Shown one piece after another: positions 7,101 through 25,154 of a DNA stretch of 56,675 nucleotides. Location of the stretch: positions 1-56,675 of the forward strand of contig JALAGF010006401.1 in the NCBI GenBank assembly GCA_030167865.1, in the 5' to 3' direction. A model generated the notes under the pieces. The model saw only the letters and a program-made list of their open reading frames with translations, had not been told where the DNA came from and ran no database searches. The translations under genes and the position numbers were made by a program. How positions within the stretch are numbered: position 1 is the stretch's first letter; every line of letters starts with the position of its first letter. The DNA is from Craspedostauros australis (lineage: Eukaryota).

Positions 7101-9507
7101 TCACTCCTCTTCTCCAGCGGCAGCGCCATCGGCCTCAGCCACCCTGGAAGGTGCGACGGACCGCACGAGGTTCATCAACGTTGTACGATCCATGTATGAA
7201 TCCACTTGCGCAGTACCCTCACTTTCATCCACGACCTTGTACAAATCCATCATGGACATGGCACTGTACTCGTCATCAACTTCATTGCTTGCCGCTCCCC
7301 CATTGCAGATGGCATGGATGCCCCCCATCAGTTGGGGATGTAGAATCAGCTTGCTGCAATCTGGATGAGTGAAGAAGGTCTGTATGTTTCGAGCTGCCAT
7401 CCTCATCGACGCATCTTTCAACACCACGCAGTTGTGTTGATCAGCGAAGATCACCATATCTACCATGGTGTCGTCTGTGAGATGAGTGCGGGCCAACTCT
7501 GCTTCAAGAACAAGCTTGAGTCGCCAGAAGCCGAACTCGTTGGCCACAAGGATCAGCTGTTGTAGATCGTCCTGTCCATGGAGGGTGGGAGTTGGCTGGT
7601 CAGCGCCATCATCATCGTCATGAGCGCCATCGCGGGTATCAGTATCGTTGTCCGGAGCGCTGTGNNNNNNNNNNNNNNNNNNNNNNNNNNNNNNNNNNNN
7701 NNNNNNNNNNNNNNNNNNNNNNNNNNNNNNNNNNNNNNNNNNNNNNNNNNNNNNNNNNNNNNNNNNNNNNNNNNNNNNNNNNNNNNNNNNNGTCATCGAC
7801 ATGCTGATGTTGGATTCCCGAGTCGATCAATGTCTGAATGGACGGAACAGTGACCATGAGGACTCCGGAGTTTGCCTTGATTGGCTGTTGTTCGTCGCCT
7901 TGTCCGCACAGGAAGGTGATGTCTGCCTTGGCCTCAGAACGAACAGCGCTGCGACGATCTTGGNCGATGCTGATGTTGGTTGTTGTGTGGATTTTAGGAT
8001 TGTNGTGCTTGGTTGGTGTTGTGATGGTGTTTGTGTGTCTTTGCTTGCGCACCTGCATCTCTGTTTGCAGCTGTGTCTGCGGTTGCAAGTTGCGACGACT
8101 GAGATGACCGAGACGCTTCATGATTGATCTCATCATCTTGACCTGATATTTCGCTTCGATTAATTTGAAGGGTGTTCCATTGTAGTTTTGGATGCTGATA
8201 TTGACCAGGTACTCGACACATTCAGACTGGCCATGGCAGCATGCATAGTGAAGTGGAGTGTAGCCATCGTTGTCTTTGCAGTTGACATCGGCGTTGCATG
8301 TTTCGATGAGGTACTTCACACATTCCAGGCTGCCTCCAACGCATGCCCCATGAAGTGGAGTGTAGCCATCGTTGTTCTTGCAGTTGACATCGGTGTCGCA
8401 TGTTTCGATGAGGTACTTCACACATTCCAGGCTGCCTCCATAGCATGCATAGTGAAGTGGAGTGTAGCCATCGTTGTCTTTGCAGTTGACATCGGCGTTG
8501 GTTGATTCGATGAGGTACTTCACACATTCCAGGCTGTCTCCAACGCATGCTTTATGAAGTGGAGTGTAGTCATCGTTGGCTTTGCAGTTGACATCGGCGT
8601 TGGCTGATTCGATGAGGTACTTCACACACTCCAGGTGGCCGTTGTAGCATGCCCCATGAAGTGGAGTGTAGCCATCGTTGTTTTTGCAGTTGACATCGGC
8701 GTTGCATGTTTCGATGAGGTACTTCACACATTCCAGGCGGCCGTAGATGCATGCCCGATGAAGTGAAGTGTAGCCATCGTTGTCTTTGCAGTTGACATTG
8801 GCGTTGCATGTTTCGATGAGGTACTTCACACATTCCAGGTGGCCGTTGTAGCATGCCCCATGAAGTGGAGTGTAGCCATCGTTGGCTTTGCAGTTGACAT
8901 CAGCGTTGGTTGATTCGATGAGGTACTTCACACATTCCAGGCTGTCTCCAACGCATGCCCCATGAAGTGGAGTGTAGCCATCGTTGGCTTTGCAGTTGAC
9001 ATCGGCGTTGCATGTTTCGATGAGGTACTTCACACATTCCAGGCTGCCCAAGATGCATGCCCCATGAAGTGGAGTGTAGCCATCGTTGTCTTTGCAGTTG
9101 ACATCGGCGTTGGCTGATTCGATGAGGTACTTCACACATTCCAGGCTGCCTTCATCGCATGCATAGTGAAGTGGAGTGTCGCCATCGTTGTTCTTGCAGT
9201 TGACATCGGCGTTGCATGTTTCGATGAGGTACTTCACACATTCCAGGCGGCCGTAGATGCATGCCCCATGAAGTGGAGTGTCACCAATGTTGTTTTTGCA
9301 GTTGACATCGGCGTTGGCTGATTCGATGAGGTACTTCACACATTCCAGGCTGCCTCCATAGCATGCCCCATGAAGTGGAGTGTCGCCACAGCTGTCCTTG
9401 ACCGTGTTGACATCACGTCCTTCGTTCTGCTCCTTCCATTCCTTCAACACCGACAGATCACCTGTAACAGCAGCACGAATGAGTTGATCGTCTGAGACAT
9501 TCGGCAT
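7101..9507 (-). CDS. Ankyrin-repeat (12 repeats plus N-cap) and C-terminal BTB/POZ-BACK-like protein; putative Cullin-3 substrate adaptor; spans the assembly gap
   Basis: ATG at 9507 (MPNVSDDQLIRAA), 12 TPLH..AC..G.LECVKYLIE..NADVN repeats, then BTB start ADITFLCG...IKANSGVL before the gap. After the gap: LILVANEFGFWRLKLVLEAEL...MVIFADQHNCVVLKDASM (SPOP-like BTB end/BACK), stop at 7101. Joining across the Ns is inferred; the two halves are in different frames at the given gap length. Confidence 0.8.
7665..7791. other. Assembly gap (127 N) inside the BTB domain of the ankyrin-BTB gene
   Basis: Run of Ns in the sequence. Confidence 0.99.
8200..9384 (-). repeat. Coding tandem array of 12 x 102-bp ankyrin units
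   Basis: The + strand motif gtggagtgt (gtgaagtgt at 8763) recurs at 8253, 8355, 8457, 8559, 8661, 8763, 8865, 8967, 9069, 9171, 9273 and 9375, an exact 102-bp period. The core ttcgatgaggtacttcacacattccagg is almost invariant. Confidence 0.97.
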
Positions 9508-10001: not shown

Positions 10002-11468
10002 TTAAGTTGCGGCGAGCGCGTTCTGTCTCTGCGTCTTGAGATCCAGGATGCACTCCGTGAGCTTGGTCTCGAGACGTTGCTGGTACGTGTACTGCGATTC
10101 TAGCATGGAGCTTTGGATCTTGGTGAAGGGGACGCCGTTGTGGGTCAATCTGTCGTAGCGTTCCGTTGCCGTCAACGGGACGTAGTTGTGATTGTAGGTG
10201 CTGTAGATGGTGTCCGAGGCGGTGCTGTTGGCCAACGCCGGCGGTGGCTTGCCGCTCCTGTTGCGCATCTTGGCAGCGTGCTTGACGTAGTCGAGGTAGT
10301 TGTCGATCTGCATGACCCAGTGACCTGACGCCTTCCATTGCATGGTGAGCGCCGGTCCGCCCGGGACAGGTTCCACGCCGACCGTGGTGGGATGTTCGAA
10401 GACCTCCACAACTGAGAATCGAACGGAAGGACGCACTGTCTTTGGCTTGCGCATGCTTCTGCGCGATGCTTGCGTTCGCTCGTCATCTTCGTAGGAGTAT
10501 TGCGAGCCGTTGTNGTGCGCGTATTGGTTGTAGACATCGTACTCACCGATGGCATTGTCGAGATTCGCATGGTACACCTGTCCGTAATCCNGCGCGCAAC
10601 GCGGATCGTTGATGACCGGGGGACCGTTTCTGAAGTGCTGCGGTGGCAGACGGGGTCTCATCTGGTTTGCAGGATGGGCGCGGTTGTGCATGTGGTACTG
10701 TTGCTGCAGCTGCTGAAGCTGACGCGGATCGGAATGGGCGCGATGAGGCACCGCACGACGTCCCATCATGGCGGATGGGTGGTGTCGCTGTGGTTGCTGT
10801 TGTTGCTGGTATTTCATCATCATCATCTGCTGTTGTTGTTGTTGCTGCTGCATCACGGTCAAAGAATCGGAATGAAACCGCTGCGGCGGCTGCCTGCGTC
10901 CCACACGTCGTTGCGTGGTGCTGCGGCGCTGCGTGGGACCGGGTTCGCTGAAGCGCACTCTGGGTCGAGACGTGGATCGGCTGTCACTGGATGCGTACGT
11001 GCTGCAGGTGGATGCCGTGGTGGCCGTCGTCTCGCTGCCTGCCACGCTGGTGTTGCTATCGAGCTCGGGTTGCTGCTGCTTTGATGTGCTCGTCCTCTTG
11101 AGGCGTCGGCGCAGGGGCCTGGGTTCGCCCGGCCGCCGGCTCTTGTCCGCGGAGGTGGATCGGTTGCGGCTGGGACGGTCCGTGCGTTGCCTTGGTGCGG
11201 CTCCGGAGGATCGGGATCGTCTGCGCTGCGTCTCTGGTTGCGATGAAGTTGTGGAAGCCTCCTCGTTGAGAGGCAGGGTCGCTGGCATGTCCGTTCTGGA
11301 TGATCTGCTTGATCTGGATTCCTTCTTCTGCTGCGGACTGCGGTTGAGCAGGCGTTGGACGTTCTTCCTCAGCTTGCCTGGCGACAGCGACATCGACTTG
11401 TTGCCGGACGATGAGGAGGAGGCCACTGTTCTGCTGCTTCTGGGAACAGCGCCATGGTGGGTTGGCAT
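10002..11468 (-). CDS. Low-complexity protein with C-terminal RVxF/CSRNP-N-like domain (paralogue A)
   Basis: 488-aa ATG-initiated ORF. SVRFSVVEVFEHPTTVGVEPVPGGPALTMQW...PLTATERYDRLTHNG...QQRLETKL is shared with three other ORFs in the window. Confidence 0.8.
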   Translation of the reverse strand: MPTHHGAVPRSSRTVASSSSSGNKSMSLSPGKLRKNVQRLLNRSPQQKKESRSSRSSRTDMPATLPLNEEASTTSSQPETQRRRSRSSGAAPRQRTDRPSRNRSTSADKSRRPGEPRPLRRRLKRTSTSKQQQPELDSNTSVAGSETTATTASTCSTYASSDSRSTSRPRVRFSEPGPTQRRSTTQRRVGRRQPPQRFHSDSLTVMQQQQQQQQMMMMKYQQQQQPQRHHPSAMMGRRAVPHRAHSDPRQLQQLQQQYHMHNRAHPANQMRPRLPPQHFRNGPPVINDPRCAXDYGQVYHANLDNAIGEYDVYNQYAHXNGSQYSYEDDERTQASRRSMRKPKTVRPSVRFSVVEVFEHPTTVGVEPVPGGPALTMQWKASGHWVMQIDNYLDYVKHAAKMRNRSGKPPPALANSTASDTIYSTYNHNYVPLTATERYDRLTHNGVPFTKIQSSMLESQYTYQQRLETKLTECILDLKTQRQNALAAT

Positions 11469-22658: not shown

Positions 22659-25154
22659 ATGAGCATGCACAGAAGGACCGTAGAGGATGCGTACGGCAGT
22701 CCACCAGCAACCTTCGATCAGTACCCTCATCAGCATCAACATCAGATGCATCACAATCGACAGCAACAGCATGGCTTGAATCCAAACTACGACCGCAACC
22801 AGCGAGACTATGATCGTTATGATCCCAGCCATCAGTATGACAACCAGAGCAACAACTACGATCCTCGTCATGATGCCAGCTACGCCAACACCTATGACAA
22901 CAACTATGATGGCAACTATGACAACAACTACGATGGCAACTACGATGGCAACAGCAGCCCCAGGGACAGCAACATGAACAGGCCTGCCATGCGCAACAAT
23001 CAGCACAGAGGCTTCCATGATGAGTCCAGTCCAAGCAGCCACAGCAACAAAGGCCAGGTCAGCCAGAACTACCGAACACAGAGCCGCCAAAGCCGTCCTT
23101 CGCATGTGGATGATGGGGATGACCGCCATGTCGGAATGATGATGAAGAAGCCCTCCAACGCGCAAACTGCCCGCGGTCCGAATCGCCCCAGGACCAACAG
23201 TGCCAATGCCATGAACACCAGTAACCACAGCAACACCAGAAGCAGAGACAACAGAGATGGCATGAACACCAGTAACCACAGCAACACCAGGGGCAGAGAC
23301 AACAGGCACAGAGGCATCCTGGTGGATCCGGATCGCCCAAGGCGCCGCATCCGCGATCGCAACGCTTCACTGCGATTCTCCAACGTCGAGCTCATCTTCT
23401 TTCCCACGACGGTCGGCGACACTCCCGTCATGCTGGGCCCGCCCATCACGATGGCATGGATTCCCAGCGATCTCTGCGTCCTCTCCATGGACGAGATGGA
23501 CCGCATCCAGCGCAATCCATCGGCCGCAGCCGCACCCGAAACGGACTTCGATGCCGACGACCTTGCGTACGGCCGCGGCACCATCCCGGACTTTGACGAT
23601 TACTACTCCGAAATGCACATGCAAATGCGTATCGACGGCCGACGTGACACGGCCGACAACGAGGTCGAGTGCATGCCGCTGTCGGCCAAACAGCGACAGC
23701 GCATACTGCGCAGCAACGGCGTCACGTGGGAGGCCATCCGCGAGGCCACGATGCAATCGCACGTCGTGCTGCAGCAGCGGTTGGAGACGAGGTTGCTGGA
23801 TCATCTCGATAACGTCTCGCAGTTCAAGACCCTCTTTTCTCCCACGGTGTTGCAAAGGCCCAAGCTGTCGCGCGAGGCCTTGTTGCGCCGGCGGCAGGCG
23901 CGAGAGAAAGAAGAAGCCATGCAGCAGATGAGTCCCAATGAGCCAATCATCACGGCGCGCCGCAATTCGGAGTACGATGAAAAGAAGATCGACGATCGTT
24001 CGCAGGATGATTTCAGCAGTCGGCCCTCCAAGCAGCAGCCCCTGTCGCAGTCCGAGTTGCTGTATCAAAAGATTCAGCAGCAAAAGCGTGAGCATGAGAT
24101 GCTCAAGAATCAGCAGCAGCAACTTTATGATCAGCAGCAGATGCAGTATGAGCAACAGCAAGCGCAGCTTTATGATCAAGAGTACGAACAACAGCAGCAG
24201 CTGCAATACGAGCAGGGATACGCGCAGGAATATCCGCAAACGCAAACGCATTACGATCAGGGTTACAACCAGGAATATCCAAACCAGCAGGCCTATGCAC
24301 AGGACTATCAGCAGCAACAGGAACAGGAGGAGCTGTACCAATATGAACTGCAACAGAAGCAACAACAGCAGGAACAGGAAGAGCTGTACCAGTATGAACT
24401 GCAACAGAAGCAGCAACAACAGGAACAGGAGGAGCTGTACCAGTATGAACTGCAGCAACAGCAGCAGCAGGCTGCCAGGATGATGAAGCCCATACTGTCG
24501 CCAGTCGCAGCCTCCATGGGAAGCAACGACGACGGCTCCTCCTCGCATGGAAGAGGAAGATCGTCCGGGCAACCGCAGGAGCGATCCAGAGGAAGGTCCC
24601 GCTCACGTCCCCGCAACGCCCGCCCCAAGACCATGAACAACGCCGCCAACAACCAGGATCTCCTGACCTCCTCCTCGCACCACAGGAAGGAGTTCGCCGA
24701 CGAGGAACCAACGCGCCCGCAGAAGCGCAATCAGAGCCGCGGTCGTGGACGCTCTCGCAGCCGTGCCGGCAAGCGCCTCGAGGTGGGTGTCAACGCGCGA
24801 CACAAATCCCCCGGCCGCACGAGACCGGATGCCACGCACGTGTCGGGAGGCGGCAGATCCCGATCGCGCGCACGACGCCGCACCTTGGTCTCATCCTCGG
24901 CCAAGGCCACCTTGAACAAGCGCATGGACGATCGCAGCAACGGATCGGATGAGTGGACCTTCGGTGGCGATGAAGTCGGCGATGTCTACGAGGTGGACAT
25001 GCCGCAACCGCAGCAGCAGCAACCACCACCGCAACGCGATGATGATACCGTCGGGATTGCCAGACGCATGCGGACCCAAAAGCGCATGTCGAAGCCACGA
25101 CGCGATCGCAGCGCCGAGCCGCGGTATCGTCCACGTTCCGCGGCCAAGTCGTAA
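22659..25154 (+). CDS. Q/Y/N-rich protein with RVxF/CSRNP-N-like domain (paralogue C)
   Basis: 831 aa. SLRFSNVELIFFPTTVGDTPVMLGPPITMAW...MPLSAKQRQRILRSNG...QQRLETRLLD, plus an RS-rich C-terminus. Confidence 0.85.
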   Translation: MSMHRRTVEDAYGSPPATFDQYPHQHQHQMHHNRQQQHGLNPNYDRNQRDYDRYDPSHQYDNQSNNYDPRHDASYANTYDNNYDGNYDNNYDGNYDGNSSPRDSNMNRPAMRNNQHRGFHDESSPSSHSNKGQVSQNYRTQSRQSRPSHVDDGDDRHVGMMMKKPSNAQTARGPNRPRTNSANAMNTSNHSNTRSRDNRDGMNTSNHSNTRGRDNRHRGILVDPDRPRRRIRDRNASLRFSNVELIFFPTTVGDTPVMLGPPITMAWIPSDLCVLSMDEMDRIQRNPSAAAAPETDFDADDLAYGRGTIPDFDDYYSEMHMQMRIDGRRDTADNEVECMPLSAKQRQRILRSNGVTWEAIREATMQSHVVLQQRLETRLLDHLDNVSQFKTLFSPTVLQRPKLSREALLRRRQAREKEEAMQQMSPNEPIITARRNSEYDEKKIDDRSQDDFSSRPSKQQPLSQSELLYQKIQQQKREHEMLKNQQQQLYDQQQMQYEQQQAQLYDQEYEQQQQLQYEQGYAQEYPQTQTHYDQGYNQEYPNQQAYAQDYQQQQEQEELYQYELQQKQQQQEQEELYQYELQQKQQQQEQEELYQYELQQQQQQAARMMKPILSPVAASMGSNDDGSSSHGRGRSSGQPQERSRGRSRSRPRNARPKTMNNAANNQDLLTSSSHHRKEFADEEPTRPQKRNQSRGRGRSRSRAGKRLEVGVNARHKSPGRTRPDATHVSGGGRSRSRARRRTLVSSSAKATLNKRMDDRSNGSDEWTFGGDEVGDVYEVDMPQPQQQQPPPQRDDDTVGIARRMRTQKRMSKPRRDRSAEPRYRPRSAAKS
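24318..24470 (+). repeat. Coding 51-bp tandem repeat x3 (QEQEELYQYELQQKQQQ)
   Basis: caggaacagga units start at 24318, 24369 and 24420. Confidence 0.9.

Follow-up and report, generated by a model that had tools for sequence, protein, structure and literature searches.

A homogenised ankyrin repeat array joined to a predicted SPOP/BPM-type BTB module in the diatom Craspedostauros australis

Introduction

Arrays of near-identical repeats within one gene, of the ankyrin (ANK), TPR or WD type, have been described in fungal NOD-like receptors (NLRs), in which, according to excerpts of Dyrka et al. 2014 (PMC4986451), 10% of the ANK repeat domains are highly conserved internally, the number of repeats in such domains is polymorphic between Podospora strains, and five positions of the Podospora ANK repeats are under positive selection. 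In the same excerpts (PMC4986451), the selected and the other polymorphic fungal sites map, with one exception, to the inner helices and the hairpin of the concave face, a rapid diversification of the recognition surface is proposed for the fungal NLR repeats, and highly conserved internal repeats are described as rare, found in 0.4–1.2% of the repeat proteins of plants, animals and dikarya. Here, we describe a gene of related design from the raphid diatom Craspedostauros australis, located on contig JALAGF010006401.1 of the draft assembly GCA_030167865.1, the forward-strand stretch of which (positions 1 to 56,675) was analysed at its full length and is called the window throughout. The gene, here termed Ank-BTB, encodes twelve ankyrin repeats followed by a BTB module.

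Diatoms are not known to have a well-described intracellular system that recognises viruses or bacteria. In animals, the Ank-BTB proteins ABTB1/BPOZ, ABTB2 and BTBD11 consist of ankyrin repeats followed by a BTB domain, and their repeats are few and diverged. Work by Thomas in 2006 reportedly found expanded MATH-BTB genes in nematodes, with positive selection in the substrate-binding domain, and is said to have proposed that the encoded proteins target foreign proteins. MATH-BTB proteins are described as CUL3 substrate adaptors in two papers (PMC4091423, PMC6883508), and the MATH-BTB genes of grasses have expanded in a lineage-specific manner according to literature abstracts. In the literature on diatom ankyrin, BTB or MATH proteins, we found no description of a diatom Ank-BTB family by title or abstract, supplements aside.

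Results

The repeats of the ten internal units of Ank-BTB turned out to be far more alike than those of any relative examined, with a repeat identity of 0.78 within the window gene versus 0.34–0.61 within each of nine relatives. Tandem Repeats Finder delimited the array to positions 8249–9388 (period 102, 11.2 copies, 87% matches, 1% indels) and reported it as the only period-102 array in the 56.7-kb window. The Pfam profile Ank (PF00023) matched 12 stretches of the window protein (385.7 bits, cut-off 21.1, E 2.7e-120), and this score above the cut-off, the paired helices of each unit and the solenoid fold of the model place the protein in the ankyrin family. A preliminary description of this DNA, made from the letters alone, had counted 12 units of exactly 102 base pairs (bp); the count and the period hold. 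Unit 1 has one extra residue, and unit 12 diverges past its helix 1. A framework stretch of 27 nucleotides (nt) occurs 11 times with at most one mismatch, always within the array, compared with an expectation of 0 (100 shuffles). The in-frame units also reproduced the variable motifs that had been listed, namely the four residues after AC (YGGS, IYGR, DEGS, ILGS, VGDS, YNGH, IYGR, YNGH, VGDS, YGGS, VGGS, CHGQ), the residue after TPLH (G, Y, R or K) and the beta-turn K[N/D/A]N[I/D]G[D/Y], as well as the recurrence of cassettes in units 1/10, 2/7, 5/9 and 6/8, which stand in different flanks and are each identical at the DNA level.

Among units 2–11, the pairwise means are 88% nucleotide and 80% amino-acid identity, and against their own consensus the units (340 amino acids in total) show 79–97% amino-acid identity (mean about 86%). 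Of their 102 nucleotide columns 30 vary, and 18 of these fall in nine codons, the differing codons being 6, 10, 15, 18–21 and 31–32. The last two form a variable pair (SA/TC/ST) that was absent from the preliminary description. By place, the variable sites belong to the beta-hairpin (6, 10), helix 1 (15, 18, 19), the following turn (20, 21) and the last part of helix 2 (31, 32), a mapping based on predicted secondary structure, an alignment with the designed ankyrin repeat protein (DARPin) D12 and the DARPin library numbering, not on model coordinates. By sequence, the top matches among solved structures were designed ankyrin proteins (5le2, E 9.7e-122). A single-sequence AlphaFold2 model (predicted local distance difference test score, pLDDT, 71) has two helices per unit and poorly defined hairpin loops, and a Foldseek comparison places it near an extended DARPin and near natural ankyrin solenoids of great length, at template modelling (TM) scores of 0.58–0.61.

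The ratio of nonsynonymous to synonymous differences per site (pN/pS) among units 2–11 was 1.07 for all 34 codons and 0.28 for the 25 framework codons, and 2.05 for the nine variable codons, which were picked after the data had been seen. At these nine codons pN (0.40) is about fivefold the framework pS (0.084). Minimal changes counted per codon came to 32.5 that were nonsynonymous and 6.5 that were synonymous, which corresponds to a rate ratio of 1.34. In a crude Poisson test against the neutral rate with Bonferroni correction over the 34 codons, two codons passed, codon 15 (5.5 nonsynonymous changes versus 0.65 expected, corrected P 0.02) and codon 19 (6 versus 0.71, corrected P 0.003); codon 18 exceeded the neutral rate nominally only. 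Diversifying selection is suggested but weak. The positions that vary in the window units correlate with those of highest entropy both in the family (43 repeats from 10 proteins; Spearman rho 0.49, P 0.0035) and in ankyrins at large (119 generic ankyrin proteins with 1189 repeats; rho 0.39, P 0.02), so the variable positions are the usual variable ones of the fold. Positions 4, 5, 7 and 8 are invariant across the window units, though they vary freely in other ankyrins, and it is this invariance together with the frozen framework that is special about the array. The clustering of changes at helix-1 and beta-turn contact sites, which had also been claimed, is present, except that the beta-turn positions 5, 7 and 8 do not vary.

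The units have exchanged sequence with one another. In a four-gamete type test, 98 of the 190 pairs among 20 informative sites were incompatible, and neighbouring sites were more compatible than permuted ones (0.365 versus 0.532, P 0.0004; similar to the pairwise homoplasy index, 5000 permutations). The mosaic of cassettes proposed earlier is supported, and unequal crossing-over or conversion in any tandem array suffices to produce it, so that a special shuffling mechanism is not required. A transcript-derived C. australis fragment, P0198 (relatives are given by such handles here), has the same N-terminal cap as the window gene and two full repeats that differ at 4 positions, three of them being 15, 18 and 19. 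Repeat identity is 0.70 within P0198 and 0.63 between P0198 and the window gene, and the excess of within-gene (0.78, 0.70) over between-gene identity is what concerted evolution, or recent amplification in each gene independently, leaves behind. In three further near-identical Ank-BTB proteins of one 90% cluster, with C. australis transcripts among them (P0126, P0195 and P0196), a repeat profile found 4, 4 and 6 repeats, and inspection by eye suggests that entire ankyrin units, and a single hybrid unit, set them apart. Such a pattern resembles a varying number of repeats or recombination in register, but could be an artefact of transcript assembly. Another C. australis protein of 366 amino acids, P0121, consists of a window-type N-terminal cap, one repeat like the last unit of the window, and then the linker and BTB; either this is a short paralogue that exists in nature, or an internal array was collapsed when the transcript was assembled.

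The array is joined to the C-terminal module by an open frame that runs from 9507 to 7792 through all ankyrin units and the first half of the BTB, and a second frame leads from 7664 to the stop at 7101, the reading frame changing across a run of N (7665–7791). The start of the gene agrees with the N-termini of P0121 and P0198, and P0107 and P0122 can be aligned with its C-terminal end. A single gene for the ankyrin and BTB parts, as the preliminary description had assumed, is supported by the single open frame 9507–7792 together with the full-length Ank+BTB relatives; it had recorded neither the minus strand of the gene nor the N-run that cuts the BTB. Both BTB halves of the window align with P0107 and P0121, and in P0107 residues 356–482 match the Pfam BTB domain with 28.9 bits (cut-off 20.5). 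BTB is assigned to the window gene because these relatives align on both sides of the gap. Family members have a long loop of variable sequence between the two halves, which in the window falls in the gap.

Among 1.84 billion representative proteins, 72 matched the C-terminus of the window protein at E≤1e-3, of which 19 did so at ≤1e-10 and 8 at ≤1e-30; among longer proteins, its 187 residues share 68% identity with P0121 and 51% with P0107. Nineteen of the 72 were scanned for Pfam content, giving six with ankyrin repeats and BTB, eight with MATH, four with BTB only and one fragment with BACK only. Counting P0107, there are seven Ank+BTB relatives, and the six others pass the BTB cut-off as well; most of the eight MATH-carrying relatives also have BTB and/or a SPOP-type BACK. 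With phmmer, the window C-terminus matched the MATH-BTB proteins P0133, P0134, P0137, P0138 and P0140 with E-values from 2.2e-19 to 3.0e-10, and a profile of 16 family members matched human SPOP over MATH, BTB and BACK (E 6.7e-45). BACK_BPM_SPOP (PF24570) is matched by 11 of the 16 family members at E≤0.5 (best 2e-6), and the BACK cut-offs are passed by P0147 (28.3 bits, PF24570), P0136 (26.2, PF07707) and P0140 (21.3, PF07707). Judged by these sequence matches, the C-terminal module is of the SPOP/BPM lineage, with the ankyrin array in the MATH position; a MATH domain had no Pfam match in the window protein, and the ankyrin repeats sit in its place. The Pfam SAP domain was detected in two of the 16 family members (best E 1.5e-6, P0147) and had no match in the window protein. 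The conserved stretch of the tail comprises about 40 residues preceding the acidic end.

All named relatives are from C. australis, in line with the lineage part of the earlier proposal of a receptor family in a diatom, and the 64-residue fragment P0124, from a eukaryote proteome set, is 100% identical to the window. For the ankyrin part, no close paralogue was found among the 120 listed of 8000 scored proteins (314–1001 amino acids), where generic ankyrins dominate and the best identity is 50%. An exact search of metagenome contigs with the framework 27-mer gave 0 matches, P0122 gave 64 pattern matches in metagenome contigs, none confirmed, and the window C-terminus gave one pattern match in viral contigs, which was not confirmed either; these viral contigs thus gave no sign of a viral origin.

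Isolated N bases at 7964, 8004, 10514 and 10591 lie near the gap, and the assembly is of low quality in this part. Exact repeats within the array reach 73 nt at most, and 4 of 1155 70-mers recur, so that reads of at least 100 nt could place every unit. One public run, X1 (share 0.31), was listed as containing the stretch, no RNA run being among those listed, and its contigs gave 317 placements, of which 110 were at ≥99%, 71 at 95–99% and 136 at 90–95% identity; they cover 29 of 30 bins, and 71 of the 317 placements fit two places. Two other runs, X2 and X3, gave no placements. The X1 contigs include many variant units, for example with other residues at codons 10, 18–19 and 21. The X1 contigs confirm the existence of the units, not their order or number.

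The features of the gene are compiled in Table 1. Ank-BTB is surrounded by open reading frames (ORFs) of an ordinary eukaryotic kind, with genes for glycosyltransferase 61, GMC oxidoreductase, DEAD helicase, phosphodiesterase, PHD and MORN proteins. An ORF of 488 amino acids at 10002–11468 on the minus strand is Ser/Arg-rich with a poly-Q/M tract and has no Pfam match. An 831-amino-acid ORF at 22659–25154 on the plus strand, which has no Pfam match either, holds two 51-bp coding tandem repeats.

Table 1 Position and basis of features in the window
Feature	Position	Strand	Basis or remark
Whole Ank-BTB coding region	7101..9507	(-)	ATG 9507-9505, stop 7103-7101; ORFs and translation
N-terminal capping helices, residues 1-31	9415..9507	(-)	AlphaFold2 helices 6-15 and 18-27; same cap in P0121 and P0198
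Twelve ankyrin repeats, 34 amino acids/102 bp each	8188..9414	(-)	Tandem Repeats Finder, in-frame reading, Pfam Ank
Ten internal highly similar units (2-11)	8290..9309	(-)	Pairwise identity, mosaic structure
Degenerate C-terminal capping half-repeat and helix, residues 441-468	8104..8187	(-)	Predicted helices 428-441 and 447-468; aligns with last repeat of P0107
Low-complexity linker, residues 469-528	7924..8103	(-)	Contains single N bases at 7964 and 8004
N-terminal half of BTB, residues 529-572	7792..7923	(-)	Alignment with P0107 and P0121 (BTB region)
Assembly gap, 127 N, inside BTB	7665..7791	.	Relatives have about 30-70 residues there
C-terminal half of BTB and BACK-like helical region	7272..7664	(-)	Sub-threshold BACK profiles; phmmer links to MATH-BTB proteins
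Conserved family C-terminal tail, possibly SAP-like, then acidic end	7104..7271	(-)	Conserved in P0107, P0122, P0129, P0130 and P0135
51-bp coding tandem repeats	23206-23305 and 24309-24466	(+)	2.0 and 3.1 copies, 89-93% matches

Discussion

We favour, with moderate confidence, the reading that Ank-BTB is a nuclear diatom gene in which an ankyrin solenoid is joined to a BTB/BACK-like/tail module of the SPOP/BPM lineage, that its array was amplified and homogenised, and that its product is a putative Cullin-3 adaptor that chooses targets. The structural and evolutionary part of this reading, a SPOP-lineage BTB adaptor with a homogenised ankyrin array and differences on the binding face, is well supported; the Cullin-3 adaptor mechanism can reasonably be inferred from the relatives, and an immune role of the protein is speculation. 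The array would have been amplified recently, with unequal crossing-over or gene conversion among its units maintaining their uniformity, and selection, or at least tolerance, would keep the differences on the ligand-binding face. The protein may then act as a dimeric Cullin-3 substrate adaptor, the ankyrin groove of which would pick a protein for ubiquitination. Its partner would be fast-evolving; candidates are factors of pathogens, factors of mating or meiosis, and selfish elements. The wider proposal that raphid diatoms possess SPOP-derived Cullin-3 adaptors whose recombination-diversified ankyrin surface recognises fast-evolving non-self or conflict proteins (viral, bacterial, mating or selfish-element) for ubiquitination seems quite improbable to us at present.

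Like the fungal NLR repeats, Ank-BTB has near-identical units in one gene, reshuffling by recombination and few hypervariable positions on the binding face; unlike them, its protein has no Pfam match to NACHT or NB-ARC, its output module is BTB-BACK and its host is a diatom. [quoted passage not shown] With the SPOP/BPM-type MATH-BTB adaptors it shares a homologous BTB and BACK-like module and an N-terminal substrate-binding position, and it differs from them by twelve ankyrin repeats in place of MATH, an extra conserved C-terminal tail and long BTB inserts in the family. The order of domains, ankyrin then BTB, is that of ABTB1/BPOZ, ABTB2 and BTBD11, but no specific sequence relation to these proteins was seen, with 19 of the 72 C-terminal matches checked by domain content. 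Among solved structures, the closest by sequence, and among the best by fold, are the DARPins, which likewise combine a near-uniform framework with variable surface positions, but here the protein is natural and built of 34-residue units. Unit positions 10, 18 and 19 have DARPin library positions 5, 13 and 14 as their counterparts, while position 31 aligns with the restricted position 26; by the same numbering, the units do not vary at the sites equivalent to library positions 2, 3 and 33, and the varying positions 6, 15, 20, 21 and 32 correspond to DARPin framework (equivalents 1, 10, 15, 16 and 27). The label of a natural DARPin library given to the array at the outset suits positions 10, 18 and 19, which are randomised in such libraries, but not the invariant positions 5, 7 and 8. 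The Ank-BTB array joins two known themes and opens no new category.

Several observations weigh against the favoured reading. The array could be a young tandem amplification under relaxed constraint, in which exposed positions drift and the framework is purified, with neither diversifying selection nor a special recognition role. Relaxed constraint could produce the pattern of variable positions, which are the same as the generically variable ones of ankyrins, and the overall pN/pS of 1.07 (framework 0.28) and the minimal-change ratio of 1.34 lie near no constraint and do not amount to strong positive selection; 32 of the 34 codons are not above the neutral rate after correction. Besides the choice of the nine codons after inspection of the data, multi-base codon changes (e.g., the linked codons 14–15) may be single conversion events that inflate the counts, and the per-codon tests are therefore generous. 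Positions 5, 7 and 8 are invariant, although their equivalents are randomised in designed libraries. The same three positions, which are variable in other ankyrins and equally exposed in ankyrin folds, argue against drift, as do the excess of changes at codons 15 and 19 and the about fivefold nonsynonymous divergence of the hot codons over the framework synonymous divergence, and we regard relaxed constraint as rather unlikely. Unit order and number, moreover, rest on a draft assembly, and the array may be partly an assembly product, composed of real units that were collapsed or joined as chimeras, so that their number, order or cassette combinations would be wrong and the shuffling exaggerated. 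In the draft, the 127-N gap lies 400 bases from the array and the positions 7964 and 8004 are single N bases, and the transcript-derived P0198 and P0121 break off or collapse inside the repeats. The X1 pieces shown are 63–118 nt long, none of those listed spans the whole stretch, and to the two-place fits (71 of 317) comes one contig that joins 8652 to 9065, skipping 412 bases with 4 other letters between. This join could stem from an allele or paralogue with its units arranged differently, or be an artefact of the graph. An assembly product is nonetheless an unlikely explanation in view of the longest exact repeat of 73 nt, which reads of at least 100 nt resolve, of the 110 contigs of an independent run that match at ≥99% with cover in 29 of 30 bins, and of the frame that is open through all 12 units.

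Other points concern the C-terminal module. The N-run divides the BTB, no part of which passes the Pfam cut-off (PF00651) in the window, and BACK stays below its cut-offs there (BACK_BPM_SPOP, PF24570, 18.7 versus 27.4 bits; BACK, PF07707, 17.2 versus 20.9 bits). The BACK part of the preliminary description is not supported by these scores. The loop that contacts CUL3 in solved complexes presumably falls in or near the assembly gap. The profile that matched human SPOP includes MATH-BTB members, so its score is partly built in, and P0122 alone had 0 matches at E≤1 among solved structures (PDB); the independent link to SPOP therefore lies in the phmmer E-values. The BTB could be an oligomerisation module only, within a scaffold or regulator that works without Cullin-3 as some animal ankyrin-BTB proteins may do; Btbd11, an animal Ank-BTB protein, is described as a synaptic scaffold. 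The sub-threshold BACK and the long, variable loop between the BTB halves, situated in the gap, agree with such a role, but the closest non-ankyrin relatives are SPOP/BPM-type MATH-BTB-BACK proteins, which are described as CUL3 adaptors (PMC4091423, PMC6883508). For the window protein, we consider oligomerisation alone improbable. A further explanation, to which we likewise assign a low probability, is that the family acts in sexual stages or meiosis, the fast change reflecting mating or meiotic conflict and not defence. Some MATH-BTB relatives elsewhere act in meiosis. Another raphid diatom, Seminavis robusta, has expanded BTB/POZ families that show a bias to sexual stages and belong to its genes with a high ratio of nonsynonymous to synonymous nucleotide diversity (piN/piS; PMC7335047), but a link of these families to the Ank-BTB subfamily would be hypothetical.

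A uniform framework combined with a varying binding face marks recognition systems in fungi. If the same were true of the favoured SPOP-type adaptor, Ank-BTB would point to degradation-based recognition and offer a testable candidate in a transformable diatom, following the diversification logic of the fungal NLR repeats but wired to degradation instead of a NOD switch. If the array is only a young, drifting repeat expansion, the gene would encode an ordinary lineage-specific BTB adaptor. Either way, a diatom BTB family in which ankyrin repeats take the place of MATH extends the known adaptor architectures by a small, clear step.

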